32,167 nucleotides of DNA from a phage, in assembly GCA_021683455.1 (NCBI GenBank), contig GCA_021683455.1_3051.2; one strand, written 5' to 3'. Every line of letters begins with the position of its first letter. Position 1 is the first letter of the stretch. Both the position numbers and the translations under genes were made by a program. The notes under the pieces were generated by a model that made no database searches, was not told the DNA's origin, and was given only the letters and a program-made list of their open reading frames with translations. Positions 3,819 to 26,298 of this stretch are shown one piece after another.

Positions 3819-4349
<531 letters not shown>

Positions 4350-4353
4350 AGTT

Positions 4354-4384
4354 GTTTACTTTCTCCTAGAATTGTGATAGTATA
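4354..4384 (+). promoter_or_regulatory. early promoter-like element upstream of ip gene (GTTTAC 4354-4359; TAGTAT-like -10)
   Basis: Sequence pattern only. Confidence 0.4.
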
Positions 4385-4437
4385 TTCACAGTTGCTTGAA
4401 GAGACAAATTACTAATTAAAATATTTAAAGGAAACAC

Positions 4438-4707
4438 ATGAAAACATATCAAGAATTTATCACTGAAGCAGCTATTAATTCTCAAATTATTGCTGAATCT
4501 TTTACTGATCTTTTGAAATTTAAAAAAGGTCAAAAAATCACTGCTGTATTGGATGATGGTACAGAAGTTGAGATGGATGTACAGGGATATAATTATGCAG
4601 TAGATGGAAAACTGTATAATAAATCTCATGCTAAATTTGATTCATTTGACGACTTTGTTAATACAGTTGAAGATGAAAAAAACTCGTCGATCCATTGTAA
4701 CTGGTGA
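4438..4707 (+). CDS. internal head protein (IPII/IPIII-like) with capsid-targeting sequence
   Basis: N-terminus MKTYQEFITEA matches the conserved capsid-targeting sequence of T4 internal proteins; AAAGGAAA SD; T4 has ipIII/ipII at this position. Confidence 0.65.
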   Translation: MKTYQEFITEAAINSQIIAESFTDLLKFKKGQKITAVLDDGTEVEMDVQGYNYAVDGKLYNKSHAKFDSFDDFVNTVEDEKNSSIHCNW

Positions 4708-4912
4708 TGCTAAGGTTCTTATGGCACATGGTCATGAACGCATTCGCGCTAAACAGAATAAAATGGGTGAAGATAATTTTGCATTAGTTGGTTATCAATC
4801 TGGTAAACAAACCTATGGTTATCAGCGTACTGCTACCATGTATAATAAAAATGGTAAAATTGCCTTTGTAAATAGTAAAGGTTCTATTCAGTACGTTAAA
4901 TCGTTCAAATAA
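4673..4912 (+). CDS. basic 79-aa ORF overlapping the ip 3' end; separate gene or frameshifted continuation of the ip gene
   Basis: ATG 4673 in +1 frame relative to 4438 ORF, across an A7 run (4676-4682); no capsid-targeting sequence of its own; weak SD. Confidence 0.35.
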   Translation: MKKTRRSIVTGDAKVLMAHGHERIRAKQNKMGEDNFALVGYQSGKQTYGYQRTATMYNKNGKIAFVNSKGSIQYVKSFK

Positions 4913-5049
4913 TATGGGAACAGCCTGGACCTCATTTGAGGTATTCTCGCCAACCTGTGATAAGGTCGAGCCAAAGCGCGGTAATGGGTAATGCAGGAAT
5001 GGACAACTCATGTGCCATGGAATGGCCCAAAAACCTTAAGAGAAATAAT

Positions 5050-5592: not shown

Positions 5593-5918
5593 TGACAGAC
5601 ACACAGCTTTTCGAATATCTCTATTTTTCGCCAAAAACTATTAAAAATAAATTGGTAAATCATTTTGAAATTTTGGCAAATAATAATATTTTAAGCGAAT
5701 TTTATCCCAAACAATACAAATTACAAAAAGGCGTATTCAAAGGATGCAGAGTTTTATGTACTGCTCCTAATGCACGGCTAATGAATAAAATTCCATATTT
5801 TACCATGGAATTTATTGATGGACCTTTTAAAGGACTAATCACGCAGAGTTTAATGGCATATGATTCTGAGCCGTTTTTAATTAAAGAACAATCTTGGATA
5901 AATTTATTTTCTAATTGA
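5589..5918 (+). CDS. hypothetical protein (vs.7-position ORF)
   Basis: ATGA overlap with upstream stop; 109 aa. Confidence 0.5.
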
Positions 5919-5925
5919 GGTTTAT

Positions 5926-6288
5926 ATGAAAGCATATCAAATTCTTGAAGGCACACATAAAGGCACTATTTATTTTGAAGATGGTATTCAAGCACGAATT
6001 ATTGTCTCTAAAACCTTTAAAGAGGACTCTTTTGTAGACCCAGAAATTTTCTACGGTTTGCATGCCCGTGAAATTGAAATTGAAACACAACCTACAGTTA
6101 AAATTGAAGGTGGTCAACACCTGAACGTTAACGTTCTGCGTCGTGAAACTCTGGAAGATGCAGTTAAGCATCCGGAAAAATATCCGCAGCTGACCATCCG
6201 TGTATCCGGTTATGCAGTTCGCTTTAACTCTCTGACTCCGGAACAGCAGCGCGACGTTATCGCTCGTACCTTCACCGAGAGTTTGTAA
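5926..6288 (+). CDS. autonomous glycyl-radical cofactor, GrcA/YfiD-like (T4 Y06I-type)
   Basis: C-terminal ~60 aa ([59 protein letters not shown]) matches E. coli GrcA C-terminus including glycyl-radical motif RVSGYAV; GAGGT SD. Confidence 0.85.
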
Positions 6289-6509
6289 TGGCAAAGATAA
6301 TTATTGAAGGTTCTGAAGATGTGCTAAATGCTTTCGCCGAGTGGTTTAGTAATTCAGGCGAACAGCAATTTAATGAAGCCTGGAATATGGGTGATATTGA
6401 TGGAATTTATCCTACGACAGAAATTTCTGTTCAAGGATATGGCATTCATGAACCTATTCGTTTAGTTGAATATGATTTATGTACTGGTGAGGAAGTCAAA
6501 TATGATTGA
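6288..6509 (+). CDS. hypothetical acidic protein (vs.5-position ORF)
   Basis: 73-aa ORF; start overlaps upstream stop (TAATG). Confidence 0.5.
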   Translation: MAKIIIEGSEDVLNAFAEWFSNSGEQQFNEAWNMGDIDGIYPTTEISVQGYGIHEPIRLVEYDLCTGEEVKYD

Positions 6510-7105: not shown

Positions 7106-7567
7106 ATGACTATCAATACAGAAGTTTTTATCCGTCGAAATAAGCTTCGTCGTCACTTTGAGTCGGAGTTTCGTCAAATTAACAATGAGATTCGTGAGGC
7201 ATCAAAAGCAGCAGGGGTCTCATCGTTTCATCTAAAATATTCTCAACATCTTCTTGATCGTGCAATTCAACGGGAGATTGATGAGACATATGTTTTTGAA
7301 TTATTCCATAAAATAAAAGACCATGTTTTAGAAGTTAATGAATTCCTGAGTATGCCTCCGCGTCCTGACATTGATGAGGATTTTATTGATGGAGTTGAAT
7401 ATCGTCCTGGACGTTTAGAAATTACAGATGGAAATCTTTGGCTTGGATTTACAGTTTGTAAACCTAATGAGAAGTTCAAAGACCCGTCACTTCAATGTAG
7501 GATGGCAATTATCAACAGTCGTCGTTTACCAGGAAAGGCTTCTAAAGCAGTAATTAAAACTCAATGA
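7106..7567 (+). CDS. regB: RegB sequence-specific endoribonuclease
   Basis: 153 aa matching T4 RegB size and N-terminus as I recall it (MTINTEVFIRRNKLRRHF...); AAGAGGAG SD; early promoter upstream. Confidence 0.8.
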   Translation: MTINTEVFIRRNKLRRHFESEFRQINNEIREASKAAGVSSFHLKYSQHLLDRAIQREIDETYVFELFHKIKDHVLEVNEFLSMPPRPDIDEDFIDGVEYRPGRLEITDGNLWLGFTVCKPNEKFKDPSLQCRMAIINSRRLPGKASKAVIKTQ

Positions 7568-22571: not shown

Positions 22572-22892
22572 ATGACTATTGAAAATAAATTAGATGTTGA
22601 TGCAGTTCTGAGCGAAATCATTGAAGACCATGATGCATTTTCGGAAAACTATGATTTCGATTTTTCCGATTATCTTAAACCTGTCGAAATAGAAGACTGG
22701 GTGCAAGATGGTAAATGCCAATATCGTCAGTGTGTTTACTTTAGTCCAAAACATAATGTACATGTAGCGGTAAATGAATCTCGGTCAGGTTCTTATCATT
22801 CTGACTGGTATTATGCAGTTTCGACTGTTGAACTAGTCGAGCCCCGTGAACGTGTAGTAACTCAGATAGTACGAGAATGGATTACGCTATAA
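22572..22892 (+). CDS. hypothetical acidic protein
   Basis: 106-aa ORF. Confidence 0.5.
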   Translation: MTIENKLDVDAVLSEIIEDHDAFSENYDFDFSDYLKPVEIEDWVQDGKCQYRQCVYFSPKHNVHVAVNESRSGSYHSDWYYAVSTVELVEPRERVVTQIVREWITL

Positions 22893-23015
22893 AACCTTGG
22901 TGGGCGGCTAGATGGGAAACTGTAGAGCCAGAGCCGGAAGAACCGGTTTACACTGATGAAGAAACAGTATATAATGAACCAACGATAAATGACTTAATTG
23001 ATATGGAGATGGGAC

Positions 23016-23543: not shown

Positions 23544-24017
23544 ATGTTATTGACTGGCAAATTATATAAAGAAGAAAAACAGAAATTTTATGATGCACAA
23601 AACGGTAAATGCTTAATTTGCCAACGAGAACTAAATCCTGATGTTCAAGCTAATCACCTTGACCATGACCATGAATTAAATGGACCAAAAGCAGGAAAGG
23701 TACGTGGATTGCTTTGTAATCTCTGTAATGCCGCAGAAGGTCAAATGAAGCATAAATTTAATCGTTCTGGCTTAAAGGGACAAGGTGTTGATTATCTTGA
23801 ATGGTTAGAAAATTTACTTACTTATTTAAAATCCGATTACACCCAAAATAATATTCACCCTAACTTTGTTGGAGATAAATCAAAGGAATTTTCTCGTTTA
23901 GGAAAAGAGGAAATGATGGCCGAGATGCTTCAAAGAGGATTTGAATATAATGAATCTGACACTAAAACACAATTAATAGCTTCATTTAAGAAGCAGCTTA
24001 GAAAGAGTTTAAAATGA
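23544..24017 (+). CDS. 49: recombination endonuclease VII (Holliday-junction resolvase)
   Basis: 157 aa; N-terminal Cys cluster CLICQ...HLDHDHELNG...CNLCN; matches T4 gp49 as I recall it. Confidence 0.9.
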   Translation: MLLTGKLYKEEKQKFYDAQNGKCLICQRELNPDVQANHLDHDHELNGPKAGKVRGLLCNLCNAAEGQMKHKFNRSGLKGQGVDYLEWLENLLTYLKSDYTQNNIHPNFVGDKSKEFSRLGKEEMMAEMLQRGFEYNESDTKTQLIASFKKQLRKSLK

Positions 24018-25831
24018 CAATTGAAAAAGAAATTGAAGGATTGATTCATAAAACTAATAAAGACCTTTTAAACGAGAATGCTAATAAAGATTCTCGTGTT
24101 TTTCCAACTCAACGGGACCTTATGGCTGGTATTGTGTCTAAACACATTGCCAAAAATATGGTCCCGTCTTTTATTATGAAAGCGCATGAAAGCGGAATTA
24201 TTCATTTCCACGATATTGATTATTCCCCTGCTCTTCCATTTACTAATTGTTGTTTAGTAGATTTAAAAGGAATGCTTGAGAACGGATTTAAGCTTGGTAA
24301 TGCACAGATTGAAACTCCTAAATCAATCGGTGTTGCTACTGCAATTATGGCACAAATTACTGCACAGGTTGCTTCCCATCAATACGGCGGAACGACTTTT
24401 GCTAATGTAGATAAAGTACTTTCTCCTTATGTTAAACGCACCTATGCAAAACATATTGAGGATGCAGAAAAATGGCAAATCGCTGATGCGTTGAATTATG
24501 CTCAATCTAAAACAGAAAAAGATGTATACGATGCATTCCAAGCTTATGAATATGAAGTAAATACTCTCTTTAGCTCAAACGGACAAACACCTTTTGTAAC
24601 AATTACATTTGGTACAGGAACTGACTGGACTGAACGAATGATTCAGAAAGCAATTCTGAAAAATCGTATTAAAGGTCTTGGTCGTGATGGGATAACTCCT
24701 ATTTTCCCTAAACTTGTTATGTTCGTTGAAGAAGGTGTTAATCTTTATAAAGACGACCCGAACTATGATATTAAGCAGCTTGCTTTAGAGTGCGCAAGCA
24801 AAAGAATGTATCCTGACATCATTTCGGCTAAGAACAATAAAGCTATCACCGGCTCATCTATTCCTGTTTCTCCAATGGGTTGTCGTAGTTTCTTGAGCGT
24901 ATGGAAAGATTCGACTGGCAATGAAATTCTTGATGGACGTAATAATCTCGGTGTTGTAACACTGAATCTTCCTCGTATCGCATTAGATTCTTATATTGGA
25001 ATACAGTTCAATGAACAGAAATTTGTTGAATTATTCAATGAACGAATGGATTTATGTTTTGAAGCTTTGATGTGTAGAATTAGTTCCTTAAAAGGAGTTA
25101 AAGCGACTGTTGCTCCTATTCTTTACCAAGAAGGTGCATTCGGGGTTCGTCTTAAACCTGATGACGATATAATTGAGTTATTTAAAAATGGCAGAAGTTC
25201 AGTGTCTCTAGGATACATTGGTATTCACGAATTGAATATTCTTGTCGGTCGTGATATTGGACAGGAAATTTTAACTAAAATGAATGCTCGTCTTAAGCAG
25301 TGGACTGAAAGAACCGGATTTGCTTTTAGTTTATATTCGACTCCTGCTGAAAACCTTTGTTATCGCTTCTGTAAACTCGATACCGAAAAATATGGAAGTG
25401 TAAAGGATGTTACCGATAAAGGCTGGTACACTAACAGTTTCCATGTTTCAGTAGAAGAAAATATTACTCCGTTTGAAAAGATTTCTCGCGAAGCGCCGTA
25501 TCATTTCATTGCGACAGGCGGTCACATTTCTTATGTTGAACTTCCAGATATGAAAAACAATTTAAAGGGTCTTGAGGCTGTCTGGGATTATGCTGCACAA
25601 CATTTAGATTATTTTGGTGTTAATATGCCGGTAGATAAATGTTTTACATGCGGAAGTACCCATGAAATGACTCCTACTGAAAACGGATTTGTTTGTTCTA
25701 TCTGTGGAGAAACTGATCCTAAAAAGATGAACACAATAAGAAGAACATGTGGTTATTTGGGAAATCCAAACGAACGTGGATTTAATCTCGGTAAAAATAA
25801 AGAAATCATGCATAGGGTTAAACACCAATGA
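24014..25831 (+). CDS. nrdD: anaerobic (class III) ribonucleoside-triphosphate reductase
   Basis: 605 aa; C-terminal glycyl-radical motif RRTCGYLG and Cys cluster CFTCGS...CSICG; ATGA overlap with gene 49. Confidence 0.97.
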   Translation: MTIEKEIEGLIHKTNKDLLNENANKDSRVFPTQRDLMAGIVSKHIAKNMVPSFIMKAHESGIIHFHDIDYSPALPFTNCCLVDLKGMLENGFKLGNAQIETPKSIGVATAIMAQITAQVASHQYGGTTFANVDKVLSPYVKRTYAKHIEDAEKWQIADALNYAQSKTEKDVYDAFQAYEYEVNTLFSSNGQTPFVTITFGTGTDWTERMIQKAILKNRIKGLGRDGITPIFPKLVMFVEEGVNLYKDDPNYDIKQLALECASKRMYPDIISAKNNKAITGSSIPVSPMGCRSFLSVWKDSTGNEILDGRNNLGVVTLNLPRIALDSYIGIQFNEQKFVELFNERMDLCFEALMCRISSLKGVKATVAPILYQEGAFGVRLKPDDDIIELFKNGRSSVSLGYIGIHELNILVGRDIGQEILTKMNARLKQWTERTGFAFSLYSTPAENLCYRFCKLDTEKYGSVKDVTDKGWYTNSFHVSVEENITPFEKISREAPYHFIATGGHISYVELPDMKNNLKGLEAVWDYAAQHLDYFGVNMPVDKCFTCGSTHEMTPTENGFVCSICGETDPKKMNTIRRTCGYLGNPNERGFNLGKNKEIMHRVKHQ

Positions 25832-26298
25832 ATTATGATAGATTTTATCCTTGCGATTTTGTGAATGGCCCTGGTTGCAGGGTCGTTCTTTTCGTTACAG
25901 GTTGTTTGCATAAATGTGAAGGGTGTTATAATAAATCAACATGGAATGCTAGAAATGGTATTCCATTCACTGGTGAAACACTAGAACAATTAATTGAATG
26001 TTTGAATAATGATTATATAGAAGGATTAACTATAACTGGGGGTGACCCTCTTTATCCTGATAACAGAGACGTGATTCACTCTGTTGTTCAAACTATTAAA
26101 AATCTTTATCCCAATAAAAGCATTTGGTTGTGGACAGGATATAAGTTTGAAGATATTAAACAACTAGAAATGCTTAAATATGTTGATGTTATTATTGATG
26201 GGAAGTATGAGAAAAATCTTCCGACTAAAAAGCTGTGGCGAGGATCAGATAATCAGCGACTTTGGTCAAATACCGATGGGGTGTGGACACATGATTAA
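25828..26298 (+). CDS. nrdG: anaerobic RNR activating enzyme (radical SAM)
   Basis: 156 aa; Cys motif CLHKCEGC; ATGA overlap with nrdD stop. Confidence 0.93.
   Translation: MNYDRFYPCDFVNGPGCRVVLFVTGCLHKCEGCYNKSTWNARNGIPFTGETLEQLIECLNNDYIEGLTITGGDPLYPDNRDVIHSVVQTIKNLYPNKSIWLWTGYKFEDIKQLEMLKYVDVIIDGKYEKNLPTKKLWRGSDNQRLWSNTDGVWTHD

Follow-up and report, generated by a model that had tools for sequence, protein, structure and literature searches.

Two spare parts for pyruvate formate-lyase (PFL) have been validated, Y06I of phage T4 and YfiD of Escherichia coli (PMC8683613). In YfiD, residues 1–60 are disordered and aid binding to cleaved PFL, and residues 61–127 have the fold of PFL residues 693–759 (PMC8683613). 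Y06I rescues oxygen-cleaved PFL after PFL-AE has installed the radical (Wagner et al. 2001 BBRC, in the form in which PMC8683613 cites it). The E. coli protein, also named GrcA, is a small (about 14 kDa) stand-alone glycyl-radical protein with the motif RVSGYAV, as is the product of the phage gene vs.6. The C-terminal domain of PflB (residues 697–759; PDB 1H16, 2PFL) has the same fold segment and motif and is the piece that a spare part replaces, whereas the vs.6 protein is free-standing. vs.6 belongs to a small set of ORFs that are conserved in diverse T4-like genomes (Nolan et al. 2006). The gene and its biochemical role are already known for T4, and the original prediction, which was made from the DNA letters of the locus studied here, correctly pointed to Y06I as a described PFL spare part (PMC8683613).

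The closest described phenomenon to the host-derived segment that we report within vs.6 appears to be host-phage intragenic recombination in cyanophage psbA (Sullivan et al. 2006, PMC1484495). psbA of T4-like cyanophages is, like vs.6, a mosaic metabolic gene with host-exchanged segments of distinct nucleotide composition. vs.6 differs in that it occurs in virulent phages of enterobacteria and encodes a 14-kDa repair part. It also differs in that its exchanged tract is defined to the base (169/169 nt) and covers exactly the structured domain, and in that phages of two host species have the versions of their respective hosts. We found no description of the host patch in vs.6, of its Klebsiella counterpart or of its discordant history in the searchable literature, which does not prove that they are new; any novelty would lie in the evolutionary detail of host-tracking replacement in this gene.

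Genome context of vs.6

We analyzed a 32,167-nt stretch of phage DNA (GenBank assembly GCA_021683455.1, contig GCA_021683455.1_3051.2), henceforth referred to as the window. It is a T4-type (Tequatrovirus-like) phage segment in which the T4 lysozyme gene e (3855–4349) is followed by vs.8, vs.7, vs.6, vs.5, vs.4, regB, vs.1, vs and tk. The vs.6 ORF occupies positions 5926–6288 on the plus strand and encodes 120 amino acids; as in T4, it lies between vs.7 and vs.5. A putative Shine-Dalgarno-like motif read from the sequence, GAGG (5917–5920, plus strand), is found 5 nt before the vs.6 ATG and overlaps the stop codon of vs.7 (5916–5918). The downstream gene vs.5 overlaps vs.6, with its ATG at 6288–6290, and a Shine-Dalgarno-like motif for vs.5, GAGAG (6277–6281, plus strand), lies inside the 3′ tail of vs.6. 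The window also encodes the anaerobic ribonucleotide reductase NrdD (605 aa; 24014–25831) and the NrdG activase (156 aa; 25828–26298). An endonuclease VII-like ORF (23544–24017) precedes NrdD.

In T4, ipIII, ipII and denV lie between e and vs.8. In the window, this interval (4350–4935) holds only a split internal-protein gene, and T4 DenV and IPIII had no tblastn match anywhere in the 32-kb window. The split gene encodes an internal virion protein (phrog_3155, a 157-position profile) in two overlapping ORFs within 4438–4912, one (4438–4707) covering profile positions 1–82 and the other (4604–4912) covering positions 78–157. The related phage KMB42 has a single intact 157-aa ORF for this protein. 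The split in the window represents either a frameshift or a sequencing error.

Identity of the vs.6 protein

The vs.6 protein shares 118 of 120 residues (98.3%) with T4 Vs.6 (NP_049730), which differs from it by the two substitutions T54P and R73H. NP_049730 is annotated as "autonomous glycyl radical cofactor GrcA", and in related phages the gene is called vs.6 or GrcA. The Pfam model Gly_radical (PF01228) scored 67.2 bits in vs.6, against a gathering cutoff of 22.2. For the NCBIfam GrcA equivalog model TIGR04365, vs.6 scored 154.6 bits, under the 170-bit cutoff, with residues 20–120 aligned to model positions 25–126; E. coli GrcA itself scored 233.9. The shortfall arises because the N-terminal half of vs.6 has diverged.

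The YfiD/GrcA structure (PDB 6OWR) was matched at an E-value of 4.6e-42. Residues 61–120 of vs.6 are identical to E. coli GrcA residues 68–127 at 60 of 60 positions, RVSGYAV included, which bears out the claim that the last ~60 residues match the GrcA C-terminus. T4 Vs.6 has one change in these 60 residues. The RVSGYAV motif falls within residues 91–100, near the C-terminus, and contains the radical glycine, Gly95 (codon GGT, 6208–6210, plus strand), which in the alignments to 6OWR and PflB corresponds to GrcA G102 and PflB G734. The C-terminus of vs.6 is identical to that of PflB at 49 of 63 positions. Homology thus supports the assignment of vs.6 as a stand-alone GrcA-type glycyl-radical cofactor, orthologous to T4 vs.6/Y06I.

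Host-type DNA in the 3′ half of vs.6

We compared the gene with E. coli grcA at the nucleotide level using an anchored alignment. Positions 6104–6272 on the plus strand (169 nt, henceforth the block) have zero mismatches to chromosomal E. coli grcA. On the 5′ side of 6104, ungapped in-frame identity to grcA is about 38%, and the last 16 nt of vs.6 (6273–6288, plus strand, encoding FTESL and then TAA) have five differences from grcA, all synonymous. The 5′ junction is at GAAGGTGG, and the 3′ end of the tract falls within the last 16 nt before the stop, where the ancestral phage tail is kept. T4 has two synonymous differences in this tail, as opposed to five in the window, and its host-identical tract ends elsewhere. 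Among complete E. coli genomes, 5426 out of 5426 match 6104–6288 in chromosomal grcA, at 95–99% identity (best 97.3%). When the window was searched against E. coli genomes by megablast, 6104–6292 was the only part of positions 1–25000 to match, pflB giving a weaker match at the same site, and positions 7168–32167 had zero matches. The block DNA is closer to grcA (100%) than to pflB (80.6%).

Composition was assessed by GC content, GC at third codon positions (GC3) and codon counts, since a codon adaptation index would be trivially host-like in a block that is itself E. coli grcA. The block has a GC content of 0.497, compared with 0.337 for the phage-type 5′ half of vs.6 (5926–6103, plus strand) and 0.343 for the whole window. 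Only 0.07% of 169-nt windows reach the value of the block, which is the highest GC peak in the 32 kb. A two-state maximum-likelihood model placed the GC change point at 6109, coinciding with the homology boundary at 6104, and GC3 rises from 0.20 in codons 1–59 to 0.46 in codons 60–120. In the 3′ half, CTG accounts for 5 of 6 leucine codons (7% in the window's genes) and CCG for 3 of 3 proline codons (15%). The GC-richer 3′ half with E. coli codons and the composition boundary that had been noticed by eye are therefore both real.

Protein conservation would not be expected to produce this identity. With the same protein written in the phage's own codon usage, 77% identity to E. coli would be expected, and all 55 codons would coincide with those of E. 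coli with a probability of about 1e-28. In unpatched phage lineages, 43–61% of the codons for the same amino acid are shared with E. coli. Both an excess of nucleotide identity over protein conservation (169/169) and a GC step (at 6109) were thus found, and they indicate, in agreement with the original prediction, that the 3′ half of vs.6 is host-derived DNA. Separately, GC reaches its second-highest value (0.479) at 22776–22951, and the GC3 maximum outside vs.6 (0.52) is at about 16015. Both lack a match to E. coli DNA and so do not represent additional host patches.

A stretch of host-identical DNA in a phage contig raises the generic concern of contamination or chimeric assembly, and phage-to-host transfer could also give such identity. 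Nothing specific at this locus suggests either, and hundreds of genomes sequenced independently of one another, T4, T2, RB32 and RB69 among them, show the same junction, with the reading frame unbroken across it. Also against these explanations are the composition of bacterial grcA, which is uniform along its length, block identities that track bacterial relationships, and the host-like GC of the block inside an AT-rich phage, and we give them practically no credence. The locus carries a caution, in that DNA identical to the host's in a lytic phage genome does not by itself point to contamination or lysogeny.

The N-terminal half and the age of the gene

The original prediction read the gene as a host radical domain joined to a phage-specific N-terminus. 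In this explanation, the gene would be a new chimera that arose when a glycyl-radical module, taken from a host on a single occasion, was joined to an unrelated N-terminal segment specific to phages. The sharp boundary in composition and identity at 6104 is compatible with such a fusion, as is the result that the N-terminal half alone matched zero NCBIfam models at E ≤ 1. However, the N-terminal half does align to that of GrcA. BLASTP between the two N-terminal halves alone gave 36% identity over 39 aligned residues (E 4e-6), with the vs.6 half 7 residues shorter, and phmmer aligned vs.6 residues 22–120 to YfiD residues 28–127. Comparison by hhalign of a profile of nine phage N-terminal halves with a profile of fifteen bacterial GrcA N-terminal halves gave a probability of 91% and an E-value of 1e-6 over 46 columns. 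The first ~13–20 residues of vs.6 were unaligned to GrcA by all methods used, and the region of homology corresponds to YfiD residues 18–66. The N-terminal half is accordingly, by these alignments, a diverged homolog of the GrcA N-terminus. What stands of its description as phage-like is the DNA (GC 0.337); the protein that it encodes is not phage-specific.

We searched IMG/VR and GenBank for homologs and found full-length ones in other T4-like genera, including Karamvirus (CC31, PG7), Pseudotevenvirus (RB16, RB43) and Slopekvirus (KP15). The phage-type N-terminal half is common to the T4-like homologs across genera. The 3′ halves of the Karamvirus, Pseudotevenvirus and Slopekvirus genes are 75–84% identical to any of 80+ bacterial grcA genes and contain no long exact runs in comparison with them. 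Because these full-length homologs are unpatched, the gene is older than the patch. In addition, the final codons of vs.6 in the window, GAG AGT, are those of the unpatched T4-like genera (E. coli has GAA AGC), so that it was homologous sequence within an already existing gene that the host DNA replaced. The fusion explanation conflicts with these ancestral codons in the 3′ tail and with the full-length phage-type homologs, which are also found in T5-like phages, and we consider it quite unlikely. As a whole, vs.6 is a GrcA homolog with two halves of very different ages.

The patch starts at the codon matching GrcA E68, and therefore lies within the structured half; its product is the structured glycyl-radical domain, from GrcA residue 68 to about residue 123. 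This structured half must fit host PflB and be recognized by host PflA.

The bacterial sample of 80+ grcA genes was built on a contig scan that gave 80 species, from which K. pneumoniae was absent. We took the K. pneumoniae and K. aerogenes genes from chromosomes labeled as plasmids in PLSDB (CP125156.1 and LR134122.1); the K. pneumoniae "plasmid" entry is a 5.37-Mb chromosome. The grcA of K. aerogenes NCTC10006 (LR134122.1) has a frame-breaking indel, probably an assembly error, and its CDS is annotated as 324 nt. Gapped identities for this record are 90.5–92.9%, and the ungapped values of 0.60–0.63 are meaningless given the indel.

History of the block and of its flanks

We calculated nucleotide diversity from a MAFFT alignment of ten T4/RB69-type phages. 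Pi amounts to 0.013 for the block, as compared with 0.064 for the N-terminal half of vs.6 and 0.12–0.25 for neighboring genes. Pairs of T4-type and RB69-type phages differ at 7–13 synonymous codons in the N-terminal half and at 0–1 in the block (P 1e-3 to 1e-6). The block of the Mosigvirus RPN187, like that of the window, is identical to E. coli at 169 of 169 positions. The opposite pattern is seen in the comparison of the window with phage Killian, with 2 synonymous differences in the N-terminal half and 8 in the block. Flanking DNA was compared for Killian and IME537 and is almost identical to that of the window; their blocks have 6–8 synonymous differences from every sampled E. coli with zero amino-acid changes, so synonymous change is tolerated in the block. 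The history of the block is therefore discordant with that of its flanks in both directions.

These patterns bear on the possibility of a single ancient replacement in the T4/RB69 ancestor that has since been held in place by extreme purifying or codon-level selection, without repeated exchange. Essentially one 5′ junction is seen in about 625 records (among the matches listed), and the GrcA protein is highly conserved, as this explanation would require. Repeated events would, however, also give a shared junction, since this is the point from which phage and host are similar. One event is difficult to reconcile with a block that tolerates synonymous change in Killian and IME537 and that has diverged less than the N-terminal half in comparisons of T4-type with RB69-type phages, yet more than the flanks in that of the window with Killian. 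The K. pneumoniae-type block of Klebsiella phages described below poses the same difficulty. We judge a single replacement to be unlikely, and favor repeated replacement.

The Killian-type block is carried by a small Tequatrovirus clade (Killian, EcNP1, Nami, PD112 and IME537). We looked for its donor among E. coli genomes and found none, the best match being 95.6% identical; this block may be a decayed older patch or may derive from an unsampled donor. Variation at the other end of the tract is also informative. At five synonymous sites in the last 15 nt, host-type and phage-type states occur in at least six different combinations among the ten phages, as expected if exchange tracts end at different points. 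The sequence comparisons argue for more than one exchange of the block within E. coli phages. The repeated events may be host-to-phage conversions, or converted alleles may have been passed between co-infecting phages. The low diversity of the block could also result in part from the spread of one converted allele by phage-phage recombination.

E. coli-type and Klebsiella-type blocks

The identity of the block to E. coli grcA is 1.000 in the window, 0.994 in T4 and 0.988 in RB69, and these three blocks are 0.87–0.88 identical to K. pneumoniae grcA. The relation is reversed in the Klebsiella T4-like phages JD18 and Merci and in a Klebsiella-phage-like IMG/VR contig (L028). Here the identity of the block to K. 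pneumoniae grcA is 0.959, 0.964 and 0.976, respectively, and that to E. coli grcA is 0.85–0.88. For comparison, over the block E. coli grcA is 0.917 identical to that of Citrobacter, 0.876 to that of K. pneumoniae and 0.828 to that of Salmonella. In L028 the vs.6 homolog (1501–1859) is a 359-nt match with an 80-aa ORF and a frameshift in the N-terminal half. This frameshifted copy nonetheless has the most K. pneumoniae-like block.

A query with E. coli grcA retrieved 625 phage records at ≥ 95% identity, including T2, RB32, RB69 (Mosigvirus) and T4-type phages from Shigella, Yersinia, Salmonella and Proteus. The same query matched about 100 Klebsiella phage records at just 85–89%. With K. pneumoniae grcA as the query, 106 phage records were 95–99% identical. 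All E. coli-type matches listed start at the same position or no more than a few bases from it, and the K. pneumoniae-type junction is the same among the matches listed. These identities suggest that the same replacement, from K. pneumoniae, took place in Klebsiella T4-like phages.

Replacement nevertheless appears to be rare rather than routine, for three reasons. No Salmonella-type block was found in phages (best match 83.9%), and no patch was found in five Karamvirus contigs from Enterobacter phages (L009–L013). Furthermore, in T4-type phages from Yersinia, Salmonella or Proteus the block is still of the E. coli type.

Proposed origin and function

We consider it probable that vs.6 combines two properties, that of a PFL spare part and that of an older phage homolog whose structured-domain part has been replaced by host grcA, more than once and from more than one host species. 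T4-like phages would long have possessed a diverged grcA homolog of full length. Chromosomal grcA of E. coli would then, in the T4/RB69 lineage, have overwritten the structured-domain part by homologous (homeologous) recombination. Phage-host similarity begins at GAAGGTGG, which would set the 5′ limit of the tract, and ends shortly ahead of the stop codon, which would set the 3′ limit. The patch is suggested to come from recombination with the host chromosome because T4 recombination is very active and the limits of the tract are the limits of similarity. Against homologous recombination, the ancestral phage 3′ half would be a poor substrate, at only about 80% identity to the host.

With respect to function, oxygen would cleave host PFL at Gly734 and the vs.6 protein would bind the cleaved enzyme. 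The host activase PFL-AE would install the glycyl radical on the vs.6 protein, and its C-terminal domain would replace the lost PflB C-terminus, bringing activity back. This rescue is proposed for the window's protein from its near-identity to T4 Y06I. The phage may supply its own spare part because infection shuts off host gene expression, and the benefit would be that anaerobic production of acetyl-CoA, ATP and formate is kept running.

The original prediction had raised the possibility that the protein repairs the phage's own NrdD. NrdD and NrdG are encoded 18 kb downstream of vs.6, NrdD is also a glycyl-radical enzyme that is cleaved by oxygen, and a role for vs.6 in nucleotide metabolism was suggested by Nolan et al. 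2006. Direct repair of NrdD, as an alternative to repair of host PFL, was nevertheless unsupported by the comparison of the two proteins, which showed zero significant similarity (best E 2.6, in the wrong region), and the radical loop of NrdD is RRTCGYLG, as compared with IRVSGYAV in vs.6. The extent of C-terminal identity to PflB and to GrcA, together with the PFL rescue by T4 Y06I, as relayed in PMC8683613, likewise favors PFL as the target, and we regard a spare part for NrdD as highly improbable.

Class III ribonucleotide reductase uses the formate made by PFL as its reductant. An indirect link is therefore plausible, in which sustained PFL activity feeds anaerobic dNTP synthesis by the phage NrdD/NrdG through formate.

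A stronger version of the proposal is that T4-type phages repeatedly overwrite the structured half of GrcA with the grcA of their current host as an adaptation that keeps the spare part in exact match with PflB and its activase, the match being more than a neutral side effect of recombination. We offer this adaptive reading tentatively and with some doubt. If it is true, strictly virulent phages would have a mechanism by which an auxiliary gene tracks the host, with recombination confined to the stretch that is still similar. Irrespective of adaptation, 169 bp of a strictly virulent, host-DNA-degrading phage are base-for-base host chromosome. The block offers a clean, experimentally tractable case in which to measure gene conversion from host to virulent phage, and it allows the fitness value of an exact match to host PflB/PflA to be tested.

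GrcA-like proteins in other phages

Stand-alone GrcA-like proteins (about 51–68% identical) are also encoded by T5-like phages, on contigs of 108–122 kb (L044–L070), and by jumbo-phage contigs of ~350 kb (L027 and L030). The DNA of these T5-like and jumbo-phage genes is not host-identical, at 0.63–0.78 to the best bacterial grcA. One 91-kb metagenome contig (L023) has, at block positions 117–172, a 56-nt exact run with a Haemophilus grcA (L146), and its sister contigs L021 and L025 differ from it several times over these positions. On the strength of this run, L023 may carry a partial host patch in a Pasteurellaceae phage.
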